A stretch of 64,000 nt of DNA, from positions 351,356 through 415,355 of the forward strand of contig NMRA01000142.1 of assembly GCA_002633005.1 (NCBI GenBank), written 5' to 3'. The stretch comes from Phoronis australis (Eukaryota; Animalia; Phoronida). Made by a program: the position numbers and the translations under genes. Under the pieces are notes generated by a model. That model saw only the letters and a list, made by a program, of their open reading frames with translations. It had not been told where the DNA came from and did no database searches. Shown here piece after piece: positions 1 to 25,117 of this stretch; position 1 is the stretch's first letter; every line of letters begins with the position of its first letter.

Positions 1-3000
1 CTTCAGTGAAGATTTTTATGTTATTTTCCTGCACACTACCCTCACTGTCTTTGTCCAAGGCCACTGAGTACTTCTCTTGCTCGTTGTTAGTGTCTTCACT
101 TAAGTTCTGAATTTCTAACACTATTTCAGACCTGGTAACTGGTTCTGCTTCAGTGTCCTCTGTGTCTCCTCTGTAGATGACAGCTTGCAACTCTAAATCT
201 TCAGCAGTCTTGTTAATAACCTCTTCGTTAGCAGGCACCTCCAAATCTTTCTTGCACTTGATACCGTCTTCTTGGCGTATTATTGCTTTCTCATATTCTT
301 TGCCAGTGTGTTCTGAACCTGCTTGAAGGATGGCGCCGTCCTCTTTGTCTTTTAATGTGGCCACTGGAAGTTCCCCATCTTCAATATTCTGATCAGAAGC
401 ATTGTTATTTGTGCTATCATGGAATGTGTCCTGTGAACACGCTCTGTCTCTGGGAGCTTCTTTGCCATCGTCACTGGCTATTGTAAACTTCTTTTCATGC
501 ACACTGTCCTCATTATCTTTGTCAGTGGACTTCTCTTGTTTGACATTAGTGTCTTCATTTGTGTTCTGAGTATCAGATATTACTTCAGAACTAGGACTTG
601 TTTCTGACTCAATGTATTCTGAATCACCTTGGTAGGTGACACCATGCAGCTTTAATATTGTAGCACTGTAAATTTCTTTGTCAGTGTCTTCTGAACCTTT
701 TTGACAGGTGGCATCATCCTTTTTGTCATTTCTTGTAACCACTGAAAATTCCCCATGCTTGGTATTCTGATCAAAAGTGTTGTTAGTTGTGTCTAGGAGT
801 TCTGCACTCATATTGTCTCTGACGTCTTCATTGGCAACTGTCTCTAAAACGTCATTGTGACCAAAGCCAATTGTATCCTCAGCACTTGCACTGATGTCAT
901 ACCTGCTACTATGCTGTGTTTTGAATACCACTTGATATTCGTCCAACCTCCCATCATCCATGTCAACCAAAATGTCTTCCTGGTTTTTGCCATCTCCTTT
1001 GTCTCTGGTATCACAATTTTGATGACTAATGACATTTCTTTCTTCTATTACAGTTTTAATTTTGTCGTCCTTTACAGTGTTCAAATCCTCTCTGTTACAA
1101 GATGCATTTTGGTCAACCGTGTGATCTTTCCCAGTCTCCACTTCATTGTCTCTTTCTCCGTAACTGTTTTCAGTATCTGGGTGGACTTCGTCATCATTGC
1201 TCTTTGCGTGCAAACATTCATTCTTGGTATCAGTCTCTATGTCTTTAACATTGTCATCTGGATCTCCTGCAAACTTGGAATCTTTCTTACCTGCTTCGTC
1301 CATTCCCTCTAAAGCGCTTTCACTCTGATGTTCATAATCGCTATCATTATCAGTGACCTCTGAACCATCTTTATGCATGCTGTCCGCCTCATATGGTTCC
1401 CTTGTTTCATCGCCTTCAGACATTTTTTCAATTTCAACTTTTTCAGAATCATTTTCTTCATGCCTGTTACCAGTTTTATTGTCTTGTGAACCAACAGGCA
1501 TTGAGTCTTTGTCATCTTTGCCAGAATCTTTTAACCCTTCTTGATCGTCATCTTTATGCCTTTTTAATGACTTGTCATCATTTCTGGGAGCTTCTGTGAT
1601 GATGTTATTGTTGTTGACAGTTGCGTCATCTTCTGTGTCCAATGCCTCTTTACACTTCTGTTTCTCTGAGTCGTCAGTTGTGTTTTGAATGTCATATATC
1701 ATTGCTGACCTGTCCGTGTCTATTTCAGATGCCTCTAAATCATCTTGACAGATCGCAGCTGCTTCCATTTTGTCAAACAGTTCCAATTGTCCTTCAGTGT
1801 CATCTTTTTTGGCAGTAGTTTCTCCAGTGTTTTGGCAGGTGCTATCGATTTCTCTGTATGAAGTATTAATTGCCTTTTCTTTGGCATTGTCTTCTGAAAC
1901 TTCTTCACGGATGTCATCTTCCTTTCTGTCTTTGCATGTGGCATCTGAATGATCCCCGTGATCAGTATTCTGATTAGCAATCTTGTCAGTTGTGTCGTCT
2001 CTGTATTTGTCCTGTGAACATTCTCCACTTGTGGAGGTATTTTCACTATCTTCATTGGCTGTTTGAGTGTTCTTTTCATGCATGCTATCCTCATTCTCTT
2101 TGTACATGTCCTCTGAGTGCTTCTCTTGCCTGCTGATAGTGCCTGCACGTGTGTTATGAATATCCAATGTTATTTCAGACCTGGTGCTTGTTTCTGGTTC
2201 AGTGTCCTCTGAATCTTCTTGGTGGTCAACAGCATGCAACTCCAAGTCTTCAGCAGTCATGTCAATTATGTCTTCTTTGTCAACAGCACCCAAACCTTCC
2301 AGGGAGCCTATTTCATTGCTTTTATATATTGTGGCATTCTCACTTTCTTTGTCAGTGTCTTCTGGACCTTCTCGACTGATTATATCGTCCGATTTGTCTT
2401 TGGATGGCATATCTGAAATTTCCTCATGCTTTATATTTTGATTAGAAGTATTGTCATCCTTGTAGGTATCCTGTGAACATTCTATGCTTCTGGGATCATC
2501 TTTGTCATCTTCATTGTCAATTTTTACATTCTTTTCATGCACACTATCCTTTTTACTGTTTTCCGATGCCTCTGAGTACTTCTCTTGCTGGTCATTAGTG
2601 TCTGCACTTGTACTCTGAATATCTAACATCATTTCAGACTTGGCAACTGTTTCTGCTTCAGTGTCACCTGAATCCTCTTGATAGATGACAGTATCCAACT
2701 CCAATGTTGTGGCATTCTCAATTTCTTTTTCAGTGTCTTGAAAGGTGGCAACATCCTTTTTGTCTGTTCTTGTGACCTCTGAAAATTCCCCATGCTCAAT
2801 ATTCTGATCACAGGTATTGTTAGTTGTATCTGAATTTCCTAGACTTATATTGTCTCTGCCATCCATATTGGCAACTGTCACCAGAACTTCACTGTGGCTG
2901 AGGTCAACCGTACAAGTTTTTCCATGTCTCTCATCAATTTCATTGCAGTCTTTTTCAGTCACTTGGGAACCAACAGGCTTTGAATCTGTGTCATCTTTGT

Positions 3001-6000
3001 CAGAATCTTTTGAACCTTTTTGTCTGTTCTCTTGCTCACCATCTTCATGCTTGTATTGTGACTTGTCACTTCCGAGATCATCTTTATCATCTTCATTGAT
3101 GATCTCATCATATTTGTCCATTTTTTGTTTGTGCTTTTGTTGCTCCTTGTCATTGTCATCAGTTGTGTTTTGCATGTCAGGTGTTACTTCTGAGATTTCG
3201 TCTGCCTCTGCTTCAGTCACCTCTGAGTCTTCTTGGCGAATTGCGGCAGCCTCTACTTTGTCAAACAGCTCTGAATGCTCTTTAGTATTGTCTGTGGTAG
3301 CAGTTTCCACAGTGTTTTGACAGGTGCTATCATTTTCTTTGTCTGTAGTAGCAATTGCCTTTTCTTTGCTAGTGTCTTTAAATTCTTCACCAATAGAAAC
3401 ATCTTTTCTATCTGTGTATGTGGCCTCTGAAAATTTCCCATGCTCAATATTTTGATTGGAAGTATTGTCTGTATTGTCATCCCTGGAGATTCCCTGTGAA
3501 CATTCCACACTTGTGGAGACATCTTTGTCATCTTGATTGTCAAATTTAACATTGTCGTGCACACTGTCCTCGTTATCTTTCTCCATGGCCTCTGATTTCT
3601 TGTGTTGTTTGTCATTAGTGTCTGCTGTTGTGTTCTCATTACCTGATATCATTTCAGATCTGGTGTCTGTTTCTGCATTAGACTCCTCTGAATTTCTTCG
3701 GTAGGTGACATCATCCAGGTCCACTGCTGTGGCATTCTCAATTTCTGTTTCAATGTCTTTCAAACCTTCTAGACAGGTGGCATCTTCATTTTCGTCTTTT
3801 CTTGTGACCTCTAAAAATTCCCCATGCTCAATATTCTGATCAGAAGTATTGTTAGTTGTAACTGAATTTTCTTCACACACATTTGCTCTGTCATCTTCAT
3901 TGGCAACTGTCACTAAAACTTCACTGGAGCTGAAGTCACCTTTGCTCACAGCACTTGAACTGATGTCGGGCCTGCTACCATGTGTTTTGGACAGTTCTAA
4001 ATATTCGTCCATCCAGCCATCACCCGTACTGGCTTTGTGCATGTGAACCAAAGTGTCTTCATGGCTGTTAACGTTTTCTTCTTTGTCGGTGGTATCAGAA
4101 CTTTGCTGACTAATCACATTTCTTTCTTCTCTCACAGTTGTCATTTTGTTGTCTTTTACAGTGCTCAAATCTCCTATGTTACAAGATGTATTTTGCTTAA
4201 TGTTATGAGCTTTTCCAGTCTCTACTTCATTGTCTGTTTCTCTGTAACTGTCTTCAGTGTCTCGATGGACTTCATCATCATCGGCCTTTGCCTGCAAACC
4301 TTCTCCATCCTGGTTATCATCTCCTTTGTCTTTAACAGCGTCATCTGAATCTTTTTCAGGCTTAAGATCTTTCTCACCTACTAGAGCCATCGCCTCTGAA
4401 GCACTTTCACACAGGCATTCATAGTTGCTATCATTGCCAGTAACCTCTGATCCATTTTTATGCATTCCATCTGTTTCGTGGTTTTTGATTGCCTCATTGT
4501 CTTTGTTAGGCATTTTATCAATTTCATATTTTTCAACACAAGTTTTTTCATGCCTGTCACCAGTTTCGTTGTAGTCTTTTTCAGTTTGTTGTGAACCAAC
4601 AGGCATTGAATCTGGGTCATCTTTGTCAAAAGCTTTTGAGCCTACTTGTTTGTTGTCTTGCTCATCTTTATGATTGTCTAGTGATTTGTCACTTTTGTTA
4701 GCATCTTTGAGATCTTCATTGATGTTCTGATCATCTTTGTCCAACTTCTGTTTGCACTTTTGTTGCTCCTTGTCATTGTCATCAGTTGTATTTTGCATTT
4801 TGTGTGCTGTAGCTGGGCTTTGGTCTGTCTCTGCGTCAGTTGGCTCTGAATCATATTGGTGAATTGTAGCAGCCTCTATTTTGTCAAACAATGCTGAATG
4901 TTCTTCAGTATCATCTTCTTTGGCATTAGATTCCACATTGTTCTGGCAGGTGGTATCATTTTCTTTGTAAGCAGTTGCAATTGCTTTTCCTTTGTCAGTG
5001 TCTTCTGAAACTTCACCTATGGAAACATTCCTTCTGTCCATGCATGTGGCCTCTGAAAATTCTTCATGCTCAGCATTCTGATGAGAAGTATTGTCGATTT
5101 TGTCATCTTTGTATGTGTCCTGTGAACATTCCATGCTTCTGGGGTCCTCTTCATTGATAATTTTAAAATTGTTTTCATGCGCATTATCCTCGTCATCTTT
5201 GTCGATGTCCTCTGAGTTGCTGTGTTGCTTGTCATTAGTGTCTCCATTTGTGTTCCGATTATCTGTCATTTCAGACCTGGCATCTGTTTCTGCTTGAGAC
5301 TCCCCTGAATTTTCTTGGTAGATGACAGTATTCAGGTCCGCTATTATGGCATTCTCAAGTTCCTTTTCAATGTCTTCTGAATCTTCTTGATAGGTGGCAT
5401 CATCCATTTTTTCTTTTCTTGTGGCCTCTGAAAATTCTCCATGCTCAATATTCTGTCCAAAAGTATTGTTAGTTGTATCTGATATTTCTTCACACATTTT
5501 GGTTTTGTTTTCTGCATTTGCAACTGTCACTAAAACTTCACTGTGGCTGAAGTCAACTGTACCCGTTGCATTTGAACTAATGCCAGATCTGCTACCATGC
5601 TGTGGTTTGGATACCTCTGAATATTCATCCATACTGCCACCACCCATTTTAGCTTTGTCCATGTGAACCAAAATGTCTTCCTGGCTATTACCATTTTCTC
5701 CTTTGTCGCTCGTATCAGAACTTTGAGGACTAATGACATTTCCTTCTTCTGCTACAGTTGCAATTTTATCGTCTTTTACAGTGTCCAAGCCCTGTGTGTT
5801 ACCAGATGTGTTCTGGTCAACATCATAAGCTTTCCTAGTCTCCACTTCATTGTCGATTTCTTTGTAAATGTCTTCAGTATCTGGATCAGCTTCATCATCA
5901 CTGCTTCTTGTCTGCAATCCTTCTCCATCCTTGATATCATCTTTGTCTTTAACTGTGTCCTCTGAATCTTTTTCAGGCTTGAGATCTTTCTTACTCACTT

Positions 6001-9000
6001 GATCCATCTCTTCTGAAGCACTTTCACACTGACGTTCATAGGTAGTATCATTGTCAATGATCTCTGATCCATCTTTATGCATGCTGTCTACATCATATTT
6101 TTTGGTTGTCTCATCTTCTTCAAACATTTTATCAGTTTCAAAATTTTCAGCATTCATTTTTCCATGCCTGTCGTCAGTTTCATTGCAGTCTTTTTCAGTG
6201 TCTTGTGAACCTGTAGGCATTGAGTCTGTTTCATCTTTGTTAGAATCTTTTGAACTTTCTTGTCTGTTGTCTTGTTCATCATATTGAAGCTTGTCTTTTG
6301 ACTTGTTGTCATTTCCTAGAGCATCTTTGGCATCTTCATTGATGATGTTCTCATCATTTTTGTCCGATGTCTGTTTGCACTTTTGTTGCTCCTTGTCATT
6401 ATCATATGATGTGTTTTGTATGTCGGGTGTTGGCATTGCGCTGTTGTCTGTCTCTACTTCAGTTTCAACTGAGTCATCTTGGTGTATTGCAACAGCTTCT
6501 ATTTTGTCAAACAGTTCTGAATGTTCTTCAGTATCACCTTCTTTGAGAATAGTTTCTACACTGTTCTGACTGGTGCTGTCTATTTCTTTGTATGAAGGTG
6601 CAATTGCTTTTCCTTTGCCAGTATCTTCTGAAACGTCTTCACCAATGGGAACATCCTTTCTGTCTATGTATGTGGCCTCAGAAAATTCTTGCTCATTATT
6701 CTGATTAGATGTGTTGTCAGTTGTGTCATCCCTGTAGATGTCCTTTGAACATTCCTCTGTTCTAGGGACATCTTTTTCGTCTTGATTGGGAATTTTAACG
6801 TTGTTTTCATGCACACTATCCTCGTTATCTTTGTCCATTGCCTCTAAGTTCTTGTGTTGTGTGTCATTAGTGTCTGCACTTGTGTTCTGAATAATCAATG
6901 TCATTTCTGACCTGGCATCTGTTTCTGCTGTAAACTTCCCTGAATTTCCTTGGTAGATGACACTATCCAGGTCCGCTGTTATGGCATGCTCAATTTCCTT
7001 TTCAGTGCCTTCTGAACTTTCTTGATAGGTGGCATCATCCATGTTGTCTTTTCTTGTGGCCTCTGAAAATTCCCCATGCTCAATATTCTGATCAAAAATA
7101 CTGTTAGTTGTGTCTGAATTTTCTTCGCACATATTGGTTCTGTTTTCCACACTGGCAACTGTCACTAAAACTTCACTGTTGCTGAAGTCAATTGTACCCA
7201 TAGCACTTGAACTAATGTCAGATCTGCTACCATGCTGTGGTTTGGTTACCTCTAAATATTCGTCCATACTGCCACCACCCATTTTAGCTTTGTCCATGTG
7301 AACCAAAATGTCTTCCTGGCTATTACCATTTTCTCCTTTGTCGCTCGTATCAGAACTTTGAGGACTAATGACATTTCCTTCTTCTGCTACAGTTGCAATT
7401 TTATCGTCTTTTACAGTGTCCAAGCCCTCTGTGTTAACAGATGTGTTCTGGTCAACATCATAAGCTTTCCAAGTCTCCACTTCATTGTCTATTTCTTCGT
7501 TAACGTCTTCAGTATCTGGATCTGTTTCATCATCATTGCTCCTTGTCTGCAATCCTTCTCCATCCTTGATATCATCTTTGTCTTTAACTGTGTCCTCTGA
7601 ATCTTTTTCAGGCTTGAGAGCTTTCTTACTCACTTGATCCATCTCTTCTGAAGCACTTTCACACTGACGTTCATAGGTAGTATCATTGTCAATGATCTCT
7701 GATCCATCTTTATGCATGCTATCTACATCATATTTTTTGGTTGTCTCATCATCTTCAAACATTTTATCAGTTTCAAAATTTTCAGCATTCATTTTTCCAT
7801 GCCTGTCGTCAGTTTCATTGCAGTCTTTTTCAGTGTCTTGTGAACCTGTAGGCATTGAGTCTGTTTCATCTTTGTTAGAATCTTTTGAACCTTCTTGTCT
7901 GTTGTCTTGTTCATCATATTGAAGATTGTCTTTTGACTTGTTGTCACTTCCTGGAGCATCTTTGGCATCTTCATTGATGATGTTCTCATCATTTTCGTCC
8001 GATGTCTGTTTGCACTTTTGTTGCTTCTTGTCATTATCATATGATGTGTTTTGTATGTCGGGTGTTGGCATTGCGCTGTTGTCTGTCTCTACTTCAGTTT
8101 CAACTGAGTCATCTTGGTGTATTGCAACAGCTTCTATTTTGTCAAACTGTTCTGAATGTTCTTCAGTACCACCTTCTTTGAGAATAGTGTCCACACTGTT
8201 CTGACTGGTGCTGTCTATTTCTTTGTATGAAGGTGCAATTGCTTTTCCTTTGCCAGTGTCTTCTAAAACTTCTTCACCAATGGGAATATCCTTTCTGTCT
8301 ATGTATGTGGCCTCAGAAAATTTTCCTTGCTCATTATTCTGATTAGAAGTATTGTCAGTTGTGTCATCCCCGTAGATGTCTTTTGAACATTCCTCAGTTC
8401 TAGGGACATCTTTTTCGTCTTGATTGGCAATTTTAACCTTGTTTTCATGCACACTATCCTCGTTATCTGTGTCAGTTGCCTCTAAGTTCTTGTGTTGCGT
8501 GTCATTAGTGTCTGCACTTGTGTTCTGAATATTCAATGTCATTTCTGACCTGGCATCTGTTTCTGCTGTAAACTCCCCTGAATTTCCTTGGTAGATGATA
8601 CTATCCAGGTCGCCTGTTATGGCATGCTCAATTTCCTTTTCTGTGCCTTCTGAACCTTCTTGATAGGTGGCATCATCCATGTTGTCTTTTCTTGTTGCCT
8701 CTGAAAATTCCCCATGCTCAATATTCTGATCAAAAAGACTGTTAGTTGTGTCTGAATTTTCATCGCACATATTGGTTCTGTTTTCCACGTTGGCAACTGT
8801 CACTAAAACTTCACTGTGGCTTAAGTCAACTGTACCCGTAGCATTTGAACTAATGCCAGATCTGCTACCATGCTGTGGTTTGGATACCTCTGAATATTCA
8901 TCCATACTGCCACCACCCATTTTAGCTTTGTCCATGTGAACCAAAATGTCTTCCTGGCTATTACCATTTTCTCCTTTGTCGCTCGTATCAGAACTTTGAG

Positions 9001-12000: not shown

Positions 12001-12100
12001 CTCCATCGCTGATATTATTCTCCTTAACAGTGGCCTCTTGATCTATTTCATGTTTGAGATCTTTCTTACCTCCTTCATCCATCTCTGAAGCACTTTTTTC
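1..12100 (-). repeat. Coding tandem repeat array, unit ~1.62-1.67 kb (~545 aa), about 7 units visible, continuing beyond window start
   Basis: Anchor gt(g/c/t)aaccaaa(a/g)tgtcttc at 962, 4043, 5663, 7298, 8936, 10577 (spacings 3081, 1620, 1635, 1638, 1641). Near-identical shadow ORFs at 5663/7298/8936 and 6051/7686/9324. Left-hand units carry ~460-bp sub-duplications and a deletion. Confidence 0.95.
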
Positions 12101-18100: not shown

Positions 18101-21100
18101 GTTATCAGTCAAGTGAACTACATTCATGGTAACGGCATTTTCTTTTAACTTGGTAAGATTGTCTTGTTTTGTATCAATGGCCTTTAACGTATCTTCGTAG
18201 TTGCTGTTATTCTTTTCAAGTTGGGTCATTGATGTTGAAGGAGGTTCTAGATTGTTTGTTGTTAAGTGATCTTGGCTCACGGTTTCTAGGACTTCGTCAG
18301 CCGTGGTGTAATTTTTCATATCTGTATCAATCTGCTCTGAAGTAATAGCACACCTTCTGCCGTCAGCTGCATCTGCATAGTCTAAGTCTTCTTCATGCAT
18401 AGTATTAGTCTCTTGTTCGTTTTGTACAGTTCTCGTCTTTTCTTTGTGCAAATTATGGTCACTATACTCATTCTTCACTGATGCTAAACCTTCTTCATAT
18501 TTGGCATCCGTTTCAGCAGGATTGTCTTTACCCATTGAGAGTTGTGTATCACGAACAAAGTCAGATCCCTTTGTGGCTACATCCTTTTCTGTCTTCTCTT
18601 CTTTGTCATTGCTATAGCCAAGCTCTGTATCATAGTCCAATTCTTGTGAATTTTGGTCATGACTGCTGTGACTGCTTTCATCTTGGTAATGGCTGTCACC
18701 CATGTCTTTTTCTTTGTTAGTTTCTGATGAACGTTCTTGACATGTGATATACTGATCATTTTCAATTGGATCTGAAATGTATGCGTAATTAATATCATCA
18801 ACTGCTTTGTTGATGACTTCTGACCCTTCTTGTGCGGTATCATTGTCATACCCTGTATATTCTGGCTTTGCTTCAGAACTTTCATACTTGCCGTTTTCAT
18901 GAGAGTTGTCTTTTTCAACTAGCTTGTCATAGCTGTTCTCATAAGCTTTGTTGATGTTGCGGAATCCATATTGGTGTGTGTTGTCTTTCTCATCATCTTT
19001 TCCCACTGCCTCTCCCAAATCATTGATGCACTTAGCTTCCGAGCTTAGCTTAATGCTGGCAACATTTCCTGTGTCTATGGCACTGATATCTGACTCTTTA
19101 AAGCAGGTGTCAGCATCAGAATTCTTTTTGATGATGTCTTTGGAGCTTCCAAGCCGAGAATCATTGTTGTCAGTTGTTTCTGTAACTATGAGGCTTTCCT
19201 CGTGCTTGATATTTGCGTTGTTATCTTCGTCTGTTGTTTCAGAGTTTTCTCCATCTTTGAAGTTGACCTTTGGAATCTGTCTGGCAATAGCATCACTCTC
19301 ATCGTTGTCAGCATCTTCTGAACCAGTGTCATTCTTAGTGTCATTATTGTGTGAGGCATCAAAGTCTTCTGCTAGTATGGTATCAATGTTGTTGTCTTTG
19401 TTCGTGGTTATTGACCATGCTTGTCCATACCAAGGTTCTTCTACATTATACATGGTCACTGACCGTTGTTGATACATTGTGTTATTTTGTAGGCATTCGT
19501 TCTGCTTAATTTCAACATCAGTTTCTGTTTTGATGGTTTCTGACAATTCTGGTTCATCCTTAGTTTCACGATCCTGCGTTTCATTCATGACATATGACTG
19601 TTCTTCATATCTTGTATCATTGTCGTCTTGATTGTCTTCAACAGTCTTAGCTTCTTCCAGTTTCATTTCCACCTTTGTTCCTGTATGTTGTTTAGCACCG
19701 TCATCATTTTCCCGTTTACCTTCATTTTTATCATGATCGGGCATTAGTTTGGTACATGCTTGTTCTGACTCATCAGTCTTTTTGAGTCTGTTTGTTTGTG
19801 CCACTAAGTCATTACTATTCATCAAATCATTTTTTCTTCCATTATCAGTTTCCAGTTCAGTATAGTCTGCCTCTGTTGATGCTTCATCTGATACTTTAGC
19901 AACAGACTCTTTAATCTTGCTGTCCTCAGTATCTAGGAATGGTAGTTTATCATCTAGAAAAGCAGAGTCTGCTTTAAATATTTCTTGAACTACCTCATCC
20001 TCTAGGTGATGTTTATTTGGCTCGGGCACTATAGTTTCGTGCTCTGTTATGGTTAGTGGCAGGTGCTCTAGTTCTGTTTGTTGCAGATTGTCATGTTCAG
20101 TATGTAAAGTTATGAAGTCCTGCCGATTACGTTGGTCCTGGCTCCTATCAACTGATTGATAACTTTTTGCATCTGGCGGAATTTGTTTGTCATCATTATC
20201 CGATGGTGTTGATATTTTCTTGTCTTCTGTGGACCCAGTTGATGATGATGCTTCATTGATACTTTTACTCTCTGGTTCTGATTCTGCCAACTGGTTGCTG
20301 GGTAACTGGTCGCTGATACTTGCTTGTAATGAAAAACTGTGTGCAGCTCCATCTACTTGAAACTGGTGTGGAGCATCACTTTTTGATGTTGATTCCACCT
20401 GCGCCGCATGGTCATGCTCTAACAATTGTTTATGATCATGCATAGTGTCTTCAGTTGACGTTGGTTCTTGAACTTTTTGTACGGTTTCCCTTTGGCTGTG
20501 GATAGAGTCTCCTGGTACAATTACACAAGTGTCTATCTCATCCTCGATTGCTTGCTCCATGCTACTGTCTTCCATTTCATGTTCGTGAAGTTCTTTCATA
20601 TCGGTTTCCTTGGTGATACTTGGTTTCACTTCCACATGCTCTAAAGCGTCCTCCCTGTTAGATGTCTCTGCTGCACTTTTGCTACCTCCCTCTCTCAGTT
20701 GGTCACTACTAGTCATGTGATAGATAATTTCATCAGTTGTTTCTATATCTAACCTTACACCATTGTTATCATTGCCATGGTTAGCTTCCCACACTTCAGC
20801 CAAAGACTCATTCTCATGTCTGACATTGTCTTGTGTCTTCAATTCATGGTCTCCTAAATCTATGCTTTCATTTGTGGCATTACCTGTCTGTGCTGGAACA
20901 CCGTCTGTTTCAGACTGTAATGATAGGCATGATGCTGCCTGTGATGTCTCTGTTACCATTGGTCGTTTGTCCATGGATTTGTCGTCATTTGTTGGTCGAT
21001 GAAGTACTGGCACTGTACTAAGCATCGTTCCTTGTTCAGGCAGTAAGTCACACCTGTTTACAGATTCAAGTCTAATTGATGGTATTGTGGACCATACAGA

Positions 21101-24100
21101 GATTTCACTTGGTATCTGCATTTTGTCATCTGTAGTACTTTTTGTGGGCGTGATTCCTTTGCGATTAATCTGTGGTTCTTCAAGAATTATCTCATGTTGC
21201 ATTGACTGAATGTATAGGTCTTCCTTCGAGTTAACTGAGACATCTTGGGTTTCACTTGTGCCTCTTATGCCCATGGTCTTGTTCTTGGTTTTTTGTTCAG
21301 CTTCATTTGTTTCCTGAGCTGTAGTGCTGATGTTTTTACCAAAGTGTAATTGGATAAGCTCTTTCTCATCTGTAAGTACCATAGTTCGAGCTCTGCTTTC
21401 GTCTTTCCATGGACTATCCACAGATGTCAGTGTACTTCTAGCCTCTGATCCATGCATTCTTGTTTGGATCCTCTCATTCATTTGCATACTGTCAAATATG
21501 TATTTTGTTCTTCTCTTTGCTATAGTGTGTAGATTCTCCTTGGTTTCTTTGACAACAAGAGGCTCGTCAACGCATGCGTCATCTTCTGCTGTAACATTTA
21601 ACTTCTCCCTGTCTTGAGCTTCTTGCCAATCAGTTCCAGTGATTATTTGGTTGTCTATTCTGTCCACTGGTTGTTGTCTGTTTGATACAGTTTCGTGGTC
21701 TATGTAATTGCTTGTCAGCTGCTTGTCACTTATATCTGTTGTCATCAATTGGGCTGCTGGTGTTCTTTCTGGAGGAAGAATTTGGAATAAATCATTTAAT
21801 GTCTGTGTTGGCCTTGTTATAATGACAGCAGCTACATGTGGTTCATCAACAGCTTGTTCGGCAACCCCGTCAACTTTGATGAAACGTAAACTGACTTCTT
21901 TTCTTGTTACCACATCACTTCTGTCCTTATCTAGTGACTCCAGTGACAATTTCTTCACTGGTGTTGTTTCTTTGTCAGTCCGTTGAAGAGGGCTTTGCTC
22001 ATTCATAACTTCTTGACAGTTACCAATCTTCCTGACCCGATTGTCATCGTCACTTTCCTGATTGTTTTGTCTGACTGTTTCATTCCTTGCACGTGGACCT
22101 AATTCTTGAATTATGTCATGTGTGATTGAATAGTTTATATCAACCGCTGCCTCTTCAGTTTCAAACTTTGTTGGATGTGCTTCTTCTCTTGAATTTTTTT
22201 CATGATCTTCTTCCTGTGGTTCTTGTGATACTTCGTTTTCTGACTCCGGGGTTGGTGTTTTAGACAGAATTTCCAAGTCCGTTATCAGCTGCTCATAGCT
22301 CTGACTTATTTTTGTTGTCTGACCTAAGCTTCCTTTTGGAACCATTCTTTCCTCTAGTTCTAGACTCAGATCTTTTATGTCCAATGGGCTTTTGTCTTTC
22401 CAACATAATTTTGTGTACGGTACAGTCTGACTGCTCAACTGTATTTTGTGGAGCTGAGTTGATGTTGCTTGCGGAAGCGAACTGTCTGATTCACGTCGTG
22501 GTCGATCTCCATTCACTTCAGGAGGACGTTTGATGTCGGGGATGGCGTCTAAACTTCTGTGACCTCTGTGCTTTTTATGCAAAGGTTCCAGCATGTATTT
22601 TACAGTTGTTGATGTAGAAGAAACCCCACCGTCATCTGTCTGTTGCCAATCACCTTTGTGCTTCTTGGGTGACATGTCTGTATTATAGACGTGCTGATTC
22701 ATGATCGTCTGTAGTTGTTGTTTAGACTGCACTACATTTGTTTGGACCACATTTGCATTCCTTATTTTTACTTGTTGATAACTGTTTCTGATATGATGCT
22801 GTTCAACAACTTTCATCTTTTTAGCGTTTTCGTGCTGGATGGGTTGGCTTGGAATTACCTGCTTTCCTACTTTAACTCTAGCGAGATCTTCTGTCCTGCT
22901 TGGACGTTTTTGTTTTGTGTCCTCAACTTGGACTTGCCTTTGTTGATTGCCAATTCGTTCTTCATCTAATACAGACATGGGAATCATGCTTATTCGTTGT
23001 TCTCTGTCTATTGCTTGTGGTTTTTGTTTGCTTTGCTTCTTAGAAAGAAGCATAGTTGATTCATCGTCACCATCGTACATTTGGGAAAATTGCTTTTCAG
23101 AAGTCTTGTACTGAATAGGTGTTGATGTTGTCATTGTGAATGCCTGAGTGTTCAGCTGTTCTTCGAACGCATCATTATCAAAAGCCACTTCCCGTTTAAT
23201 TCCGTGAAGAAAAACTGGATCTTCTCTGATCATCTTTCTTGACGACTTTCGTCTGATGTAGTCTTCTTTTAGCAGTACAGATTTTCTTTGGAGGTAATCA
23301 AAATACGCCTGTTGTTCACTTTCTGAAAATCTGTAACTCTTATTTCTTTCACTTGATTCGTCTTCTAGCTGTACATTATTATCTTTACCTGTGTCTAATT
23401 GGTTAACACATGCTGCACCTGCTAAGTGTGAAATGTGGTAGTATGAACTTCTCTCCACCTCAGACAGCAATAACAGTGGCTGTGGTTTCATTGATTCTGG
23501 TTTCAGTAAAGGTTGGTTTCTCCGCTGCGGAAAATTGTTGACAGAAGATGCAACCTTCATCTTCATTTTCACTGTTTGTTGCATGGACTCTTCTACCTCA
23601 TGCTGGGATTCGTCTGAGTCATCTATGTACAATATGTGTGGGTCAGAGGTCATCTGAACGACAAGTGGCGAATTTGGAGCAACTGTGTGCTCTTGCTTTG
23701 TCATCAAAGGAGTGCACACGTCTAGTGATGGCACGTTGTCATAAGTTTCTGAAAGTGAATATACCTCTATCTTTTGAGAAGAAGGTGTGTCATCGACGTT
23801 GGTCAACATTGTTACATCAGCATCTGTCTCATCATTGTTCATTGTACCGTATGGTTTTCTAAGGCTCGTTTCGTGAGCCGTATGCCAGCAACACAGGGGA
23901 CAACAGTGCTCACGAGGTTGCTTTTGTTTACAGCAACACTTATTAATGAGGTAAATGATAATTAAAAGTGCAATTGCTAAAAGCCAGTTGCCAGCTACTA
24001 TGCCTACTACTAGGTATACTTCATTGTTGGCAGTCAGTGGTCCAGTGGCTCTTCTTACTCGAGATCGTATTTTGCTCGACAGAGTTTTACCAGTTTCCCT

Positions 24101-25117
24101 TAGGTGAACTGTAGTTTTCTGGACACCCACAGCATTTTTGGCCAGACACATGTAAATTCCTTCTTCGTGTATCGTTTGGTAAAGAGTTGCAGTGCAAATG
24201 ACTCTGGATTTGTCTGCTTCTGGGAAGTCTTCACAAGGTAGCTGCATCCCTGATGGGGAATAAACTGTCAACATTGGTGGTGGATTCCCAACTGAAGCAC
24301 ACTGTATGTTGACCTTTCCTTCTGTTTGCTTGTAGTGCAGCTGGGTTGCACTTGGTTTCCTGCAGACAAGGTGGTGCTGGGTTTTACCATATCTTGCCTT
24401 TGATGCCTTTGTTGAAGGGAAACATCTGACTGTATAAACGTCTATATCACCACAGTAACTGGAATGGGTCTTTTGAACACTGTGTGTTGTTTTGTTGAGA
24501 TGCTTCAACTCGCAGGTACACTCAAGTGGATTGTTGGCAACGGAAATGTCAGACAATTTTGGAAGTGATCGTAAGTTCTTCGGCAAGGTCTTCAGTTGGT
24601 TTCTGTGGAGGCAAATGGAGTGTAGTCCAGTCAGCATATTGAAAGCATCACGTTCGATCTCCCTTATAGCATTGTGCGACAAATTCAAAAACTGAATACT
24701 TTGTGCTGGATGTCCGGCAAACATTCCTGTTCTGATGGTGGTCAGATGGTTGTAGGATAGGTTCAGGTAGACTAAGTTTTCCAAATCATGCAGCCATCTC
24801 AAGTCGATATGATGTATTCTGTTGCTTGATAGATCTAAAGTTTTCAAATGCCTCAGACCTTTGAATGTGTTTTTGAAGACGGCAGGAATTGCATTGCTGT
24901 GCAGGTCAAGAGTTTCTGCATGGGTCAAAGCACGGAAAGCTCCAGCAGTTATTCTGGTAATTCCACAGTTGCCAAAGTGGATGGAACTTGTAGCTAATAA
25001 CTGCCTTGTAGAGTTGAATGTGACCAAACCATTGTAAGGACACCACGCAGCACTCTTCATTATGCAGCCAAGAAGTGTTAGAATTTGCATAACCAGGTTG
25101 CATCGGAGAAGCGACAT
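2..25117 (-). CDS. Giant single-exon LRR-Ig type I membrane protein with a >=7,980-aa acidic repetitive tail (3' end outside window)
   Basis: ATG at 25117, 4 nt after a ttttccag acceptor (exon starts 25121). Translation begins MSLLRCNLVMQILTLLGCIMKSAAWCP (signal peptide-like). LRRs follow (ETLDLHSNAI, KTLDLSSNRI, VYLNLSYNHL, QFLNLSHNAI, SICLHRNQL), then LRRCT NNPLECTCEL, Ig (VNIQCASVGNPPP...EEGIYMCLAKNAVG) and TM VYLVVGIVAGNWLLAIALLIIIYLI. The same frame is still open at positions 2-60 (DKDSEGSVQENNIKIFTE) and at every spot checked. None of the minus-strand ORFs the track lists in 1-25117 is in this frame, as expected if it has no stop. Confidence 0.9.
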   Translation of the reverse strand, partial: MSLLRCNLVMQILTLLGCIMKSAAWCPYNGLVTFNSTRQLLATSSIHFGNCGITRITAGAFRALTHAETLDLHSNAIPAVFKNTFKGLRHLKTLDLSSNRIHHIDLRWLHDLENLVYLNLSYNHLTTIRTGMFAGHPAQSIQFLNLSHNAIREIERDAFNMLTGLHSICLHRNQLKTLPKNLRSLPKLSDISVANNPLECTCELKHLNKTTHSVQKTHSSYCGDIDVYTVRCFPSTKASKARYGKTQHHLVCRKPSATQLHYKQTEGKVNIQCASVGNPPPMLTVYSPSGMQLPCEDFPEADKSRVICTATLYQTIHEEGIYMCLAKNAVGVQKTTVHLRETGKTLSSKIRSRVRRATGPLTANNEVYLVVGIVAGNWLLAIALLIIIYLINKCCCKQKQPREHCCPLCCWHTAHETSLRKPYGTMNNDETDADVTMLTNVDDTPSSQKIEVYSLSETYDNVPSLDVCTPLMTKQEHTVAPNSPLVVQMTSDPHILYIDDSDESQHEVEESMQQTVKMKMKVASSVNNFPQRRNQPLLKPESMKPQPLLLLSEVERSSYYHISHLAGAACVNQLDTGKDNNVQLEDESSERNKSYRFSESEQQAYFDYLQRKSVLLKEDYIRRKSSRKMIREDPVFLHGIKREVAFDNDAFEEQLNTQAFTMTTSTPIQYKTSEKQFSQMYDGDDESTMLLSKKQSKQKPQAIDREQRISMIPMSVLDEERIGNQQRQVQVEDTKQKRPSRTEDLARVKVGKQVIPSQPIQHENAKKMKVVEQHHIRNSYQQVKIRNANVVQTNVVQSKQQLQTIMNQHVYNTDMSPKKHKGDWQQTDDGGVSSTSTTVKYMLEPLHKKHRGHRSLDAIPDIKRPPEVNGDRPRRESDSSLPQATSTQLHKIQLSSQTVPYTKLCWKDKSPLDIKDLSLELEERMVPKGSLGQTTKISQSYEQLITDLEILSKTPTPESENEVSQEPQEEDHEKNSREEAHPTKFETEEAAVDINYSITHDIIQELGPRARNETVRQNNQESDDDNRVRKIGNCQEVMNEQSPLQRTDKETTPVKKLSLESLDKDRSDVVTRKEVSLRFIKVDGVAEQAVDEPHVAAVIITRPTQTLNDLFQILPPERTPAAQLMTTDISDKQLTSNYIDHETVSNRQQPVDRIDNQIITGTDWQEAQDREKLNVTAEDDACVDEPLVVKETKENLHTIAKRRTKYIFDSMQMNERIQTRMHGSEARSTLTSVDSPWKDESRARTMVLTDEKELIQLHFGKNISTTAQETNEAEQKTKNKTMGIRGTSETQDVSVNSKEDLYIQSMQHEIILEEPQINRKGITPTKSTTDDKMQIPSEISVWSTIPSIRLESVNRCDLLPEQGTMLSTVPVLHRPTNDDKSMDKRPMVTETSQAASCLSLQSETDGVPAQTGNATNESIDLGDHELKTQDNVRHENESLAEVWEANHGNDNNGVRLDIETTDEIIYHMTSSDQLREGGSKSAAETSNREDALEHVEVKPSITKETDMKELHEHEMEDSSMEQAIEDEIDTCVIVPGDSIHSQRETVQKVQEPTSTEDTMHDHKQLLEHDHAAQVESTSKSDAPHQFQVDGAAHSFSLQASISDQLPSNQLAESEPESKSINEASSSTGSTEDKKISTPSDNDDKQIPPDAKSYQSVDRSQDQRNRQDFITLHTEHDNLQQTELEHLPLTITEHETIVPEPNKHHLEDEVVQEIFKADSAFLDDKLPFLDTEDSKIKESVAKVSDEASTEADYTELETDNGRKNDLMNSNDLVAQTNRLKKTDESEQACTKLMPDHDKNEGKRENDDGAKQHTGTKVEMKLEEAKTVEDNQDDNDTRYEEQSYVMNETQDRETKDEPELSETIKTETDVEIKQNECLQNNTMYQQRSVTMYNVEEPWYGQAWSITTNKDNNIDTILAEDFDASHNNDTKNDTGSEDADNDESDAIARQIPKVNFKDGENSETTDEDNNANIKHEESLIVTETTDNNDSRLGSSKDIIKKNSDADTCFKESDISAIDTGNVASIKLSSEAKCINDLGEAVGKDDEKDNTHQYGFRNINKAYENSYDKLVEKDNSHENGKYESSEAKPEYTGYDNDTAQEGSEVINKAVDDINYAYISDPIENDQYITCQERSSETNKEKDMGDSHYQDESSHSSHDQNSQELDYDTELGYSNDKEEKTEKDVATKGSDFVRDTQLSMGKDNPAETDAKYEEGLASVKNEYSDHNLHKEKTRTVQNEQETNTMHEEDLDYADAADGRRCAITSEQIDTDMKNYTTADEVLETVSQDHLTTNNLEPPSTSMTQLEKNNSNYEDTLKAIDTKQDNLTKLKENAVTMNVVHLTDNRYELSPKTVDQNQENVQSQNHAEVLVKYDDIDKGQENFNENVARQEESWKTTDKDVEHESMNEESIETQDNHNESHGTFRSSEQSETCDEGTWKDNKTWKIPKSHLKDDLDSNDNVDTVTQTNKKQENDSSSKETSNIASTEAEEDSEKGLKVLYKYEHEAWYHEGSEAVVMEYCDDITQGHLVAVGREDSETIDLKSDKDIVYADDSPLTEKEHEHHSVDVDKVDENASPERGSDLMAHDKTNEDRETMVKDYQIIYRQEDSKAIQEINIKDEEGSMATGQYDGKHCHDEEDSEIADTEKENDTSLKSELVVSDNGNKEAYKEQDIGTKDDEIKAKGNEKDITSKYEEVLAVTHTEDQSDTTKEDKIDGMKTSNENSNWHEGSEPTTICDMNDIQSSEVKGKQDGIDKVGVGSQTSDKYATNDSRCNESSKAIGEIAEDKEEDSDAHIWYEDISKESDVNYSKDMTHEDSEVEAKEGSENTAEEYANIAYADDSQVTERGDQQSTQDEKSDIVPIVDEKIQNVPHSKWLIKDLKKADKVDDDRKTTDKNDPKTTEKYENVIRIKGSSEVTKNKKGDSEKCDFMDEEADVDKSQEDYLNQKVQNHTRNQEDTEIIQEKNENSTSEDDLRTLDKEKTTSRPKEETVSTVKEDNNKTNYEEVSEAEYQVDSIQLEKGSNTIAHDGEKIARYKVGSNIKDENNEDHKTHQEDSDKIYGGEEDITRHEEPIDKENETDDTRCDSGESNENGKQEFPETTNRSNERGTEQGTELINYELIDENEAQKKGLETADNDYENAISQERDSERQDKNNKVSNDSQETNDKDDRTTNEQGLSTHKDSMLEDNDNLDDTVHEDETGVPATQQDKSDTLKYNNDSKTTYETDGCQETINLKEDLDDKNKENVIKDKDDDIQFEETTLWKHKKSLKDKGEDDEIDSTCKEHSVEQRSDKDGDENGLEALALKDNAKSQDNSEHSKINHTRKEQDPEVTDKEIKNYKRSKDTKMMDSDEDASADPTSEEGLGTKLKNVGDDSSENSEDEGNGNTSDIDNRNVNKHEPGTDEEGIWNIASHTTIKGIKTDAELRLNTQRLDKSEIGPGDQDNGNEDEDDISTENDTNEIREEEKPDSSEDKECHIVKDTCVNTTTQEISQDNTNDATNELSGVRETDDVHLTYQDTEGLNKEGITRQETLLETTRTEIQIIGSFANSQQVTLQENNEGKQEDGSKVISKTLSYENISEAINQEVQNEPKFEGAFSTPAKKYDSIDTGTTYEKDQEASETTEKEDMEEINEIVNKEDTTCNYRYEKALEDTTKDGKTSSVNNDKINDNRHENDSQVDNNEGENDAMFSEQTQTTDEKEYSSCLQEEASIDIDTVDNANRQEKSQLGDKSDKNLEETSKTQVDNAVNSTNQEVVHVNDMDEAENEECQESSDFKNDDVDYRQRQSDHVDKDADDSREEDIADRNNDSETQNEEHLETTGTNESKSIEKEESDVKDSNDARYPESSEATEKDGNDDTIDVQGYVTASSHETDKVNDDTRYETDVQSITKDKEKDTSCKKDSEDIKLEDNVNIRSEDNSLENCVHDEVKRVGIHPENNGSKEYSDVTTEDVKLTKDEESSDPVNMSFDQNEARHATGAEAIYKEDRDDTIFHGDSEVNTCREENRTTKQNEFEGKEVYIPQTKDLDLTNKEKNDSITQEGLPVNEDKNAKYGQDKIINEDCQEKDIPTAQSSGAVDKDTRMSNSNEDCSDIKYNRDEDSSGGATNLIEDDEDNSNNTSKKDTSSKSADGDADNVNGLPEIKESYNAQQSLTSNEEIFDKTDQEKDKSLTATENDDPTNMDKHNNMHTIEEDDLEAITLDNVESVTTHHESLDDIDKDKTGNNREEILDFMNQEDKNGINSKECSDAADEDDDVGVMLSNTEKEVVEDNRCVADRADKNDHSYEDKETVVNDDKSVNFQEGSNDNKREFDNISVTKADSEDNEENNDNDSFCTKDSKTFDKEGDKVNQNEEKSASEMDEGGKKDLKHEIDQEATVKENNISDGEGVQAKSDGNDIADPYPEDSHEGSAQDLELCALIYQEDTEATESETSIRSETMSHIQNTTDATNKKQEKYSEVMDKDNEDSVHKIDFTIASEDGDATKSGECSHEMYNDGITSNASIQKIEDGKYSEALCKDKKDNTICQESSLTTDKEAENDTICEEEGTFLKGLEAAVKEDVVNMTVEDLELYATIDQEDLEDTEAEAGTRYKDIDNMSADINNKQEKYPDAMDKDNNTSENIVEATAKDDTAENSELFEKTEAAVIHQDDTTEVEKDSDKNDDEGQKLEALKYSEKQDTDTKEDEKDYTETDDRHEKTDDKKYEIDEMSEKGNETTEKYEAYDVYTYGSEVTGNDTNDECQCESVSEEMDQVGKKDFKPQTDSEDAINGKKDNKDGAGLQAKSDNDEVHPDAEDSYRERDNKVETGKDRIEQKAPCDREDLNTVKDNKLTVVIEDRNTNKNPSYDASDKEENGKSQEDILVNMDKASTGHGSLDEYLEISKTQHGSRSDISSNAMGTVDFSHSEVLVTDANVENRTNMCEENSNTTNSIFDQNIEHGEFSEATRKDNMDDATYQEGLEGTEKEIEHAITADLDSVIYQGNSGEFTAETDARSEMTLNIQNTSADTNDTQHKNLEAMDKDNEDSVHENTVKIANQDEKDVPRTEECSKDIYGDDTTDNTSNQNIEQGKFSEATYIDRKDVPIGEEVSEDTGKGKAIAPSHKEIDSTSQNSVETILKERDTEEHSELFDKIEAIAIHQDDSVETEVGTENSATPTLDIQNTSYDNDKEQQKCKQTSDKNDEKIINEDAKDAPGSDNKSKDKLKYDEQDNRQESSKDSNKDETDSLPTGSQDAEKDCSNETDDRHGKMNAENFETDKMFEDDETTKKYDVDSMHKDGSEIIDNDTTYERQCESASEEMDQVSKKDLKPEKDSEDTVKDKDDIKDGEGLQTRSSDDEADPDTEDIYKEIDNEVGTGKAYDVDQNTSVNTEGMDTVKDDKIATVAEEGNVISPQSSDTSDKGENGNSQEDILVHMDKAKMGGGSMDEYSEVSKPQHGSRSGISSNATGTVDLSHSEVLVTVANVENRTNMCDENSDTTNSLFDQNIEHGEFSEATRKDNMDDATYQEGSEGTEKEIEHAITGDLDSIIYQGNSGEFTAETDARSEMTLNIQNTSADTNDTQHKNLEATDTDNEDSVHENKVKIANQDEKDVPRTEECSKDIYGDDTTDNTSNQNNEQGKFSEATYIDRKDIPIGEEVLEDTGKGKAIAPSYKEIDSTSQNSVDTILKEGGTEEHSEQFDKIEAVAIHQDDSVETEVETDNSAMPTPDIQNTSYDNDKKQQKCKQTSDENDENIINEDAKDAPGSDNKSKDNLQYDEQDNRQEGSKDSNKDETDSMPTGSQDTEKDCNETDDRHGKMNAENFETDKMFEDDETTKKYDVDSMHKDGSEIIDNDTTYERQCESASEEMDQVSKKALKPEKDSEDTVKDKDDIKDGEGLQTRSNDDETDPDTEDVNEEIDNEVETWKAYDVDQNTSVNTEGLDTVKDDKIATVAEEGNVISPQSSDTSDKGENGNSQEDILVHMDKAKMGGGSMDEYLEVTKPQHGSRSDISSSAMGTIDFSNSEVLVTVASVENRTNMCEENSDTTNSIFDQNIEHGEFSEATRKDNMDDATYQESSEGTEKEIEHAITADLDSVIYQGNSGKFTAETDARSEMTLIIQNTSADTNDTQHKNLEAMDKDNEDSVHENNVKIPNQDEKDVPRTEECSKDIYRDDTTDNTSNQNNEQEFSEATYIDRKDVPIGEDVSEDTGKGKAIAPSYKEIDSTSQNSVETILKEGDTEEHSELFDKIEAVAIHQDDSVETEVETDNSAMPTPDIQNTSYDNDKEQQKCKQTSDKNDENIINEDAKDALGNDNKSKDKLQYDEQDNRQESSKDSNKDETDSMPTGSQDTEKDCNETDDRHGKMNAENFETDKMFEEDETTKKYDVDSMHKDGSEIIDNDTTYERQCESASEEMDQVSKKDLKPEKDSEDTVKDKDDIKDGEGLQTRSSDDEADPDTEDIYKEIDNEVETRKAYDVDQNTSGNTQGLDTVKDDKIATVAEEGNVISPQSSDTSDKGENGNSQEDILVHMDKAKMGGGSMDEYSEVSKPQHGSRSGISSNATGTVDFSHSEVLVTVANAENKTKMCEEISDTTNNTFGQNIEHGEFSEATRKEKMDDATYQEDSEDIEKELENAIIADLNTVIYQENSGESQAETDARSEMTDNRNTNGDTNDKQHSNSEDIDKDDEDNAHENNFKIINEEDPRSMECSQDTYKDDKIDNTSHQNAEHEEFSEATCMDRRNVSIGEVSEDTDKGKAIATAYKENDTTCQNNVESNAKEDDTEEHSALFDKIEAATIHQYDSEPTDAETDQSPATAHKMQNTTDDNDKEQQKCKQKLDKDDQNINEDLKDANKSDKSLDNHKDEQDNKQVGSKAFDKDDPDSMPVGSQQTEKDYNETGDRHEKTCVEKYEIDKMPNKDNEAIKNHETDGMHKNGSEVTGNDSNYECLCESASEAMALVGEKDLKPEKDSDDAVKDKGDDNQDGEGLQAKADDDEVHRDTEDSYRETDNEVETGKAHNIKQNTSCNIGDLSTVKDNKMTTVREERNVISQQSSDTTDKEENVNSHEDTLVHMHKASTGDGWMDEYLELSKTHGSRPDISSSAVSKGDFSSSEVLVTVANEDDRANVCEENSVTTNNTSDQNIEHGEFLEVTRKDENEDATCLEGLKDIETEIENATAVDLDDVTYRRNSEESNAETDTRSEMISGNENTTADTNDKQHKKSEAMEKDNEDSVHDNVKFDNQDDKDVSTSVECSQGISRDDNTDNTSNQNIEHGKFSEATYTDRKDVSIGEEFKDTSKEKAIATTDKENDSTCQNTVETATTDNTKEHSELFDKVEAAAIRQEDSEVTEAEADEISEVTPDMQNTTDDNDKEQQKHKQKMDKYDEIINEDDKDDLGSDKSQYKHEDGEQENRQKGSKDSDKDDTDSKPVGSQVTEKDCNEIDERHGKTCTVDLSHSEVLVTVANMDGRDNISLGNSDTTNNTCDQNIEHGEFSEVTRTDKKDVATFQDTEKEIENATTLELDTVIYQEDSGDTEAETVAKSEMMLDIQSTSADTNDQQEKYSEASENSKKDSVHEKNVKIDNEDDKDDPRSIECSQDTYKDDNTSNQNIKHEEISDMPSKDKSDDIISREGPEDTDKESENATIYKSNEIGSLEGLGAVDKEDIIDMTAEDLELHAVDHQEDSEDTEPETSTRSEITLDIHNTRAGTISRQEKHSEDMYKENEDSMHEKNTQTANEDSENTSTSGECSQDKYRDDTTDKIANQNTDHGDHSDATCKDRKEDDIREEVSEDNAKEKAINTSYREIDSTCQNTGETTAKKDDTEGQLELFDKMEAAAICQDDLEASEIDTDRSAMIYDIQNTTDDSEKQKCKEALDTEDDATVNNNNIITEAPRNDDKSLKRHKDDDQEGLKDSGKDDKDSMPVGSQDNKTGNRHEENDSEKVEIEKMSEGDETREPYEADSMHKDGSEVTDNDSDYEHQSESALEGMDEAGKKDSKFAGDPDDNVKDIETDTKNECLHAKSNDDEVHPDTENSYGERDNEVETGKDHTVDQNASCNREDLNTVKDDKIKTVIEERNVISHQNCDTRDKGDGKNQEDILVDMDDGRLDEYQVVFKTQHSSRYDISASAEDTIGFGHNDVLETVANEDVRDNMSAELLDTTNNTFDQNTKHGEFSVVTRNDKKDDATCQKGSEDTDKEIYSATILKLHGVTYQGDSEYIESETSPSSEVISDTQNTNEDTNVKQEKSTDKDNEDSVHEKKFTIASDDGKEAPRDRACSQDTFHDSTNNNASDQNIEDGELPVATLKDKEDGAILQAGSEHTGKEYEKAIIRQEDGIKCKKDLEVPANEEVINKTAEDLELQAVIYRGDTEDTEAEPVTRSEIVLEIQNLSEDTNNEQEKYSVALDKDSEGSVQENNIKIFTE
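23945..24019 (-). other. Transmembrane helix of the giant protein
   Basis: 25 mostly hydrophobic residues VYLVVGIVAGNWLLAIALLIIIYLI followed by NKCCCKQK (basic and Cys stop-transfer). Confidence 0.88.
24020..25117 (-). other. Ectodomain (~366 aa) of the giant protein: signal peptide, ~5-6 LRRs, LRRCT, one Ig-like domain
   Basis: LxxLxLxxNxI repeats, NPxxCxCxL cap, CxxxGNPxP and EGxYxCxAxN Ig motifs read directly from the minus-strand translation. Confidence 0.9.

Follow-up and report, generated by a model that had tools for sequence, protein, structure and literature searches.

A stop-free frame of more than 25 kb in Phoronis australis predicted to join an LRR-Ig receptor head to a giant acidic tail

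The open reading frame and the start of the gene

The window analysed here is a 64,000-nucleotide (nt) stretch of the genome of the phoronid Phoronis australis (assembly GCA_002633005.1, contig NMRA01000142.1, positions 351,356 to 415,355), on whose minus strand lies one exceptionally long open reading frame, predicted to encode a receptor head of leucine-rich repeats (LRR) and an immunoglobulin (Ig) domain, a transmembrane (TM) helix and a very long acidic tail (Table 1). The frame is open from 25150 to 2, that is for 8,383 codons without a stop, and from the ATG at 25117 it specifies 8,372 amino acids (aa) before it exits the left edge of the window, its end lying outside. A preliminary description made from the sequence had claimed just such a frame from this ATG to the window edge, which is confirmed; an in-frame stop soon after the TM helix, named there as grounds for abandoning the claim, does not occur within the 8,372 visible codons. 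The visible chain has a mass of 943 kDa and an isoelectric point of 4.3. By comparison the second-longest open stretch among all six frames of the window is 182 codons, the remaining two minus frames carry 17–160 stops per 3-kb bin, and the window sequence contains no N. Base composition predicts about 544 stops for the tail, giving a log10 probability of finding none of −245, or of −122 for the non-repeat part of the tail alone.

A splice-acceptor-like site, formed by a pyrimidine tract and CAG, ends 4 nt ahead of the ATG and makes an upstream non-coding exon likely. We infer from the DNA alone that the coding stretch of more than 25 kb is a single exon; in the earlier wording of a ‘>25-kb single coding exon’ the open frame thus stands throughout, while the exon status is read from DNA and not from RNA. 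At the codon junctions of the frame the observed/expected ratio is 0.30 for CpG and 1.8 for CpA, as against 0.46 for CpG in flanking DNA, and this stronger CpG depletion may be a hint of germline gene-body methylation.

Table 1. Features of the minus-strand frame and the evidence for each (A1, alignment of the head with six comparators; AF2, AlphaFold2; pLDDT, predicted local distance difference test; KD19, hydropathy measure)
Feature	Position	Strand	Basis
Splice-acceptor-like site (pyrimidine tract + CAG)	25122..25140	-	Sequence; ends 4 nt ahead of ATG
Open frame of 8,372 aa or more, extending past left window edge	2..25117	-	Stop-free frame; other frames stop-rich
Putative signal peptide, aa 1-24	25046..25117	-	Hydropathy peak 1.65; cleavage site by eye
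LRR solenoid, aa 26-198, 6-7 repeats; N-cap degenerate, without the comparators' CxC	24524..25042	-	Pfam LRR_8; A1; AF2 block pLDDT 82-97
LRRCT cap and linker, aa ~195-252 (C200, C202, C222, C232, C252)	24362..24535	-	A1; pLDDT partly low
Single I-set-like Ig domain, aa ~253-345; C273, G320, Y322, C324 retained, C-strand Trp replaced	24083..24361	-	Pfam; A1; AF2; Foldseek
Furin-type site R351-x-R353-x-R355-R356, 13 residues ahead of TM	24050..24067	-	Sole ectodomain R-x-x-R match; putative
TM helix, aa 370-391, with G372-xxx-G376 motif and Asn377	23945..24010	-	KD19 2.66; sequence
Juxtamembrane cluster, 7 Cys among Lys/Arg, aa 394-410	23888..23938	-	Sequence; function putative
Proximal tail, aa 392-900, charge-neutral (f+ = f- = 0.135)	22418..23944	-	Composition
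Acidic, predicted-disordered tail, mostly unique, aa 901-4300; faint repeat traces from aa ~3550	12218..22417	-	Composition; disorder score; nhmmer
Degenerate partial copies ahead of U1	10457..12217	-	nhmmer with U3
Repeat unit U1, 547 aa	8816..10456	-	DNA-level repeat alignment
Repeat unit U2, 546 aa, 95.7% nt identity to U1	7178..8815	-	DNA-level repeat alignment
Repeat unit U3, 545 aa, 96.3-96.6% nt identity to U1/U2	5543..7177	-	DNA-level repeat alignment
Repeat unit U4, 539 aa, ~81% nt identity to U1-U3	3926..5542	-	DNA-level repeat alignment
Older unit copies, partial and rearranged (U5 and later), up to window edge	4..3925	-	nhmmer with U3

The receptor head

Pfam LRR_8 matches the head in three stretches (E 4e-31, 107 bits), while the match of the following region to I-set/Ig_3 is weak (E 0.005-0.008) and lies under the curated cut-offs; this is the outcome of a Pfam search that the preliminary description had proposed, in which the tail pieces, aa 501-5000 and 5001-8372, returned no family. 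Structure prediction by AF2 from the single sequence was poor (pLDDT 46), and a model built from a 43-row alignment, with a mean pLDDT of 79, was used instead; here the Ig region forms a β-sandwich at pLDDT 75-91. The top Foldseek matches of the head model are SALM2, NGL2, AMIGO-1, NGL3 and LINGO-1 (E 2e-11 to 2e-10), and with phmmer one stretch covers both the LRR and Ig regions of LRRC4C, LRRC4B and LINGO1. Alignment A1 sets the head beside six LRR-Ig or AMIGO-like comparators with total lengths of 511-987 aa. The N-P-x-x-C-x-C motif of the LRRCT cap is invariant in all seven of its rows; in the LRRNT cap the first cysteine (C26) is present and the CxC of the six comparators is missing.

Pfam, ESM Atlas, AF2 and Foldseek together support the earlier proposal of an LRR-Ig head of the LRR-and-Ig (LIG) type with one TM helix. 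Identity to the LRR-Ig matches is 22-25% and the LINGO and AMIGO clusters of ESM Atlas tie at 0.96, so that no single named orthologue group can be given. Judged by sequence and predicted fold, the head resembles those of AMIGO, NGL, SALM and LINGO and belongs to the LIG architecture class, with no assignable subfamily.

The membrane region and the tail

KD19 exceeds 1.0 in just two hydrophobic segments, the N-terminus and aa 370-388, and a basic, cysteine-containing cluster follows the second; signal peptide and single TM helix are thus disposed as in a type I protein, for which the tail is predicted to be cytosolic. The figure of ~366 residues ahead of the TM helix given previously was close and is refined here, with the helix beginning at about aa 367-370. 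Between the Ig domain and the membrane the sequence R351-S-R353-V-R355-R356 places arginine at P1, P2, P4 and P6 of a putative furin site; the helix contains a GxxxG motif and an Asn, and a cysteine cluster lies behind it. The cluster is likely to be palmitoylated, which would mark the cytosolic side. In the proximal tail YxxPhi occurs at 423, 459, 559 and 780 and [DE]NxAF once, at 647; these are presumably sorting/adaptor motifs.

Three zones can be distinguished behind the membrane: a neutral one (aa 392-900), an acidic and mostly unique one (aa 901-4300) and one built of a ~546-aa unit (aa 4301-8372). The residues from aa 401 onward carry a net charge of −1,132 and comprise 25.5% D+E and 2.1% Pro. 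Of 166 windows along the chain, 158 have a negative FoldIndex-type score, and of the eight positive ones six fall in the head and TM region; coiled coil is indicated in a single weak stretch near aa 1070-1125. Scaling laws would give the tail a radius of gyration of about 28-42 nm and a contour length of 3 µm. The preliminary picture of an acidic tail of ~1 MDa and at least 7,980 residues, predicted to be disordered and cytosolic, is supported. Its statement that no other folded domain is present holds by Pfam for the visible 8,372 residues and cannot be extended past the window edge, and the visible tail gave no Pfam match to a TIR or kinase domain, its C-terminus lying beyond the window. The proposed role as a Ca2+ buffer is unlikely, because the affinity of carboxylates in an unstructured chain is much too low for the Ca2+ concentrations of a resting cytosol, and Pfam matched no EF-hand family in the frame.

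Among short motifs in the tail, casein kinase 2 (CK2) sites are not enriched, and S-x-E occurs 48 times in the unique part against 37 ± 6 expected and falls below expectation in the repeats. Glycosylation sequons were considered as a sign of an extracellular tail and rejected as such, since in the unique part their number is close to expectation (48 vs 44.6); the repeats do show an excess (76 vs 52), but their copies are not independent.

The repeat array and coding constraint

Repeats were defined at the DNA level and by motif anchors. Likeness among the ~546-aa units ranges overall from 80 to 97%, U4 and the partial U5 being about 80-82% alike to U1-U3, and the 92 variable sites among the three youngest units include 32, 37 and 22 differences private to U1, U2 and U3 respectively, spread along the unit. 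By these alignments, duplications of the unit gave rise to the ~4,000 distal residues, and the copies offer a record of what has been retained since.

In a frame-blind DNA alignment of U1-U4 all 17 gaps (11 distinct positions) measure 3 or 9 nt. When units are aligned in pairs, with the partial U5 included, 54 of 64 gap runs have a length divisible by three, and all 26 self-matches start in frame. Neutral simulation at the divergence of U1-U4 gave a mean of 11.6 stops and no stop-free run in 2,000, while the actual copies hold no stop; for the young set U1-U3 alone the chance of zero stops is 0.016. Neutral drift would shift D+E from 0.265 to 0.203 ± 0.011 and hydrophobic residues from 0.186 to 0.231 ± 0.013, as compared with actual values in U4 of 0.262 and 0.180. 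Comparison of the copies gives a ratio of nonsynonymous to synonymous rates (dN/dS) of 0.52-1.10 under kappa 3 and 0.37-0.75 under kappa 1, the observed transition ratio of ~1.3 lying nearer the kappa 3 setting. In-frame indels, the lack of stops, retained acidity and a dN/dS of ~0.5-1.1 together argue that frame and composition are under selection and the exact sequence barely so.

Codon periodicity extends this signal beyond the repeats. Thymine occupies 11% and 15% of first and second positions and 32% of third positions, with 34.5% in flanking DNA, and under a cross-validated codon-position model 147 of 159 tail blocks of 150 nt score as coding in frame, while none of 84 intergenic blocks scores above zero. 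The 12 tail blocks that score as non-coding all fall within aa 401-1400, a zone of differing composition, and from aa 1400 onward the model finds no intron-like block. There is no depletion of splice donors in the frame (10 donor-like sites against 8.1 ± 2.8 expected), and just one acceptor-like pyrimidine tract lies inside it. Taken together, this evidence for coding constraint is strong, and we regard the frame and its domain order as real.

Avoidance of polyadenylation signals was entertained as proof of transcription and rejected as a general avoidance of TpA. AATAAA occurs six times in the frame against 21.8 expected under synonymous shuffling, GATAAA being depleted more strongly; under a junction-preserving null the values are six against 12.3 (P 0.016) for AATAAA, with P 0.012 for GATAAA, and the use of T-ending codons is equal in Asn-AAA and Asp-AAA (0.21 vs 0.22, P = 1.0).

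Relation to known systems

The closest likeness is to the LIG receptors (AMIGO1-3, NGL1-3/LRRC4, SALM2/5, LINGO1 and Drosophila Kekkon), which share with the present frame a signal peptide, about six LRRs, an LRRCT cap, a membrane-proximal Ig domain, one TM helix and a tail without known domains, and which provide its best matches in sequence, features and fold. AMIGO is described with six LRRs, two caps, one Ig domain and a tail without known domains (PMC2173769). The phoronid protein differs in its 22-25% identity over LRR and Ig regions, in the degeneracy of its LRRNT cap and Ig tryptophan, in its membrane-adjacent furin-type site and in a tail of at least 7,980 residues, compared with total lengths of 511-987 aa among the comparators. 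A literature search, mostly of open papers and judged by title and the start of the abstract, found no LIG protein with a giant tail in one frame.

For the tail itself the nearest analogue is the giant ankyrin Ank2-XL of Drosophila. Its exon measures 27,804 bp and carries 93 repeats of 76 aa (PMC5135030, Tables S3/S4). It is the largest open reading frame of the Drosophila genome, long ankyrin exons averaging 8.1 kb, and the repeats are ‘postulated to serve as a molecular spacer’ (PMC5135030); the protein is given as ~1,200 kDa and Ank2-L as connecting an adhesion molecule with microtubules (PMC6703079). Ank2-XL combines a very long exon, a lineage-specific repeat array, a proposed spacer and a giant protein tied to the membrane, and the present 25.1-kb open frame with its repeats would be comparable if it is one exon. 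In contrast, Ank2-XL is a cytosolic adaptor that holds an adhesion molecule through ankyrin repeats, whereas here receptor and spacer would form one chain, apparently from one exon, and the repeat unit is ~546 aa as against the 12-76 aa listed in Table S4 of PMC5135030. Pfam finds no ankyrin repeats, ZU5-ZU5-UPA or death domain in the visible 8,372 residues; the likeness is in our view one of analogy and not of homology, and the frame is not that of a giant ankyrin. The exon-size record implied by the preliminary description is not supported in view of the Ank2-XL exon, as listed in those tables, and of its picture of a giant repeat moved inside the cell the predicted cytosolic location holds, while Ank2-XL stands as an intracellular precedent.

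Membrane mucins such as MUC16 and giants of the AHNAK type also combine a giant exon, tandem repeats and low sequence constraint; the repeats of the mucins are extracellular and rich in P/T/S, in contrast to a tail that follows the TM helix with 2% Pro and 25% D+E. Precedents exist both for the exon size and for a giant repeat inside the cell; the unusual part is the fusion of receptor and tail in one frame.

Interpretation

Tentatively, and with a likelihood that we put a little short of even, we read the frame by analogy as one that is likely translated in full into a type I LRR-Ig protein, whose predicted-disordered tail in the cytosol would serve as a spacer or tether anchored at the membrane. 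Signal peptide and TM helix would place the head outside and the tail inside, and the helix together with palmitoylated cysteines would keep the tail at the membrane. The neutral first ~500 residues of the tail, bearing the putative sorting/adaptor motifs, may be the original tail, and the remaining ~7,500 residues would form a self-repelling coil tens of nanometres wide that sets distance or excludes other material. Since stops have been purged up to the last visible codon, the full length or an unseen C-terminal element would appear to be needed. The head would confer adhesion or targeting, and cleavage at the furin-type site may release it. A more elaborate form of this reading is on the whole doubtful: a single-chain ‘receptor plus giant ankyrin’, in which a megadalton polyanionic cortical spacer would be tuned by duplications of 546 residues and switched by furin (possibly with release by γ-secretase), encoded by one exon perhaps longer than the 27.8 kb of Ank2-XL.

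Several observations weigh against a membrane-anchored spacer. The head is degenerate, lacking both the LRRNT CxC and the Ig tryptophan found in all six comparators, and its Foldseek TM-scores are only 0.3-0.46. Ten of the 64 pairwise gap runs are not multiples of three, being compensating 1+2 runs or belonging to U5 pairs. The near-neutral dN/dS gives no sign of a specific binding sequence in the repeats. The coupling of the tail to an extracellular sensor, as first proposed, is made doubtful by the furin-type site, cleavage at which would uncouple the head. No orthologue was found in any search. This covers proteins of 231-735 aa (120 matches), of 736-2100 aa (best 120 of 396 matches) and of 4,604-14,651 aa (three matches at 31-32% identity that span 21-25% of the query and carry no Ig Pfam family). 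In a 1.84-billion-sequence library, the only search to cover lengths of 2,101-4,603 aa, the best 150 of 40,725 matches, down to 177 bits, are all multi-stretch LRR proteins at no more than 38% identity, so that a distant orthologue could lie among the remainder; among metagenome contigs 91 pattern matches gave none that was confirmed. Two unnamed proteins, P0297 and P0371, consist of tandem signal-LRR-Ig(-TM) modules and probably come from other animals in which neighbouring genes of a tandem LIG cluster were predicted as one.

RNA also counts against the reading. Three raw runs under the same species label, each sampled at 11.0-12.8 million records (~18-19% of the run), and one contig set (together X1-X4) were mapped to 11901-31900. 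Of the 19 bins over 11901-24573, all have zero depth in X2, X3 and X4 and 18 have zero depth in X1, the exception being about one read pair, in antisense orientation if the library is of the usual stranded kind. Depth traces of 0.01-0.23 over 24574-25240 may spill over from upstream repeats, and no read junction falls at the acceptor-like site before the ATG in the mapped runs. The coverage check across the frame proposed in the preliminary description thus returned essentially no reads from three runs on the 5' 13 kb. As an argument against expression in the sampled runs this is weak, covering that 5' portion alone with run identity uncontrolled.

Upstream of the gene, at 25241-31900, interspersed repeats attract nearly all mapped RNA reads as partial matches of 90-95% identity. 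Some reads link pieces near 27450-27650, 28760-28930 and 29400-29500, which suggests one repeat family.

We think it unlikely that the chain is instead a processed precursor, from which furin would free the LRR-Ig head as a soluble ligand or decoy and γ-secretase would cut the remaining stub of 10-13 residues, leaving the tail to act off the membrane. A short stub is the usual γ-secretase substrate, the four arginines lie in the sole R-x-x-R of the ectodomain, and none of the six A1 comparators aligns reliably there. In basic stalks, however, chance alone can produce motifs of the R-x-x-R type, no orthologue is at hand for checking conservation of the site, the cysteine cluster would hold a released tail on the membrane, and the literature search, judged from its listings, found no direct LIG precedent for furin processing.

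Somewhat less credible is a runaway, nearly inert linker, expanded by unequal crossing-over, its frame kept by an element past the window or by mRNA surveillance and its acidity by a need for solubility. Long exons tend to elongate and to encode disordered regions (PMC9825244), and a dN/dS near 1, repeated partial duplications and rearrangements, and a C-terminus beyond the window all fit such a linker. The retained composition lies 4-5 standard deviations off neutral drift, though selection for solubility alone could yield that, and a 1-MDa chain would presumably be costly to make.

We regard it as improbable that the giant form arises only as a minor isoform or in certain tissues, with internal donors or early polyadenylation used in most mRNA, so that the locus would not be one constitutive 25-kb exon. 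Giant ankyrin exons are isoform-specific and neuronal (PMC5135030, PMC6703079). The undepleted donor-like sites, the first at 22858 and others at 14488 and 12069, the six AATAAA and the three RNA runs without signal would suit this alternative, yet no intron-like block occurs beyond aa 1400, the frame holds one acceptor-like tract, and the head is also without reads, so that no short isoform is seen. Least credible of all, and in our judgement very improbable, is an assembly artefact of alleles stitched in tandem or a recent pseudogene, for although no RNA was seen and U1-U3 differ by ~4%, a level that alleles can reach in polymorphic invertebrates, their private differences make them three distinct sequences rather than two stitched alleles, removal of two units still leaves ~7,280 codons, and with 4.9% of single-base changes in the tail creating stops a dead gene would break quickly.

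If the membrane-anchored spacer is expressed as predicted, its cytoplasmic tail would by far exceed that of every other LRR-Ig receptor found in our searches, and it would allow one to ask, in a natural setting, whether selection on a receptor tail can act on length and charge alone, in the absence of conserved sequence. Its repeat array would record frame and composition being kept while sequence is nearly free, its 25-kb purine-rich exon would be a case for the study of splicing and translation, and it would exemplify a type of gene liable to be overlooked in annotation and in searches with a length limit.

Other features of the window

On the plus strand, exon-like pieces of a telomerase reverse transcriptase (TERT) gene extend over 38706-49732, with limits guessed from open reading frame fragments; 44456-44686 matches TERT in the PDB at E 2.5e-7 and 41681-41971 only at E 0.37, and in the aligned GxPQG motif Thr stands in place of Pro. 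A 67-bp repeat lies at 48317-48476. On the minus strand a frame of 159 codons without a Pfam match (49681-50160) overlaps the plus-strand frame 49415-49732, and exon-like pieces of a PAP2-family phosphatase, with a probable likeness to PLPP4/5, occupy 52258-53282 (Pfam PAP2, E 1.5e-4 for 53022-53282). Between them, at 50610-51017, is a minisatellite of 17-bp units (~20 copies) followed by 15-bp units. Further along, a minus-strand, Cys-rich frame of 92 codons at 54991-55269 has no Pfam match and is presumably transposon-associated.

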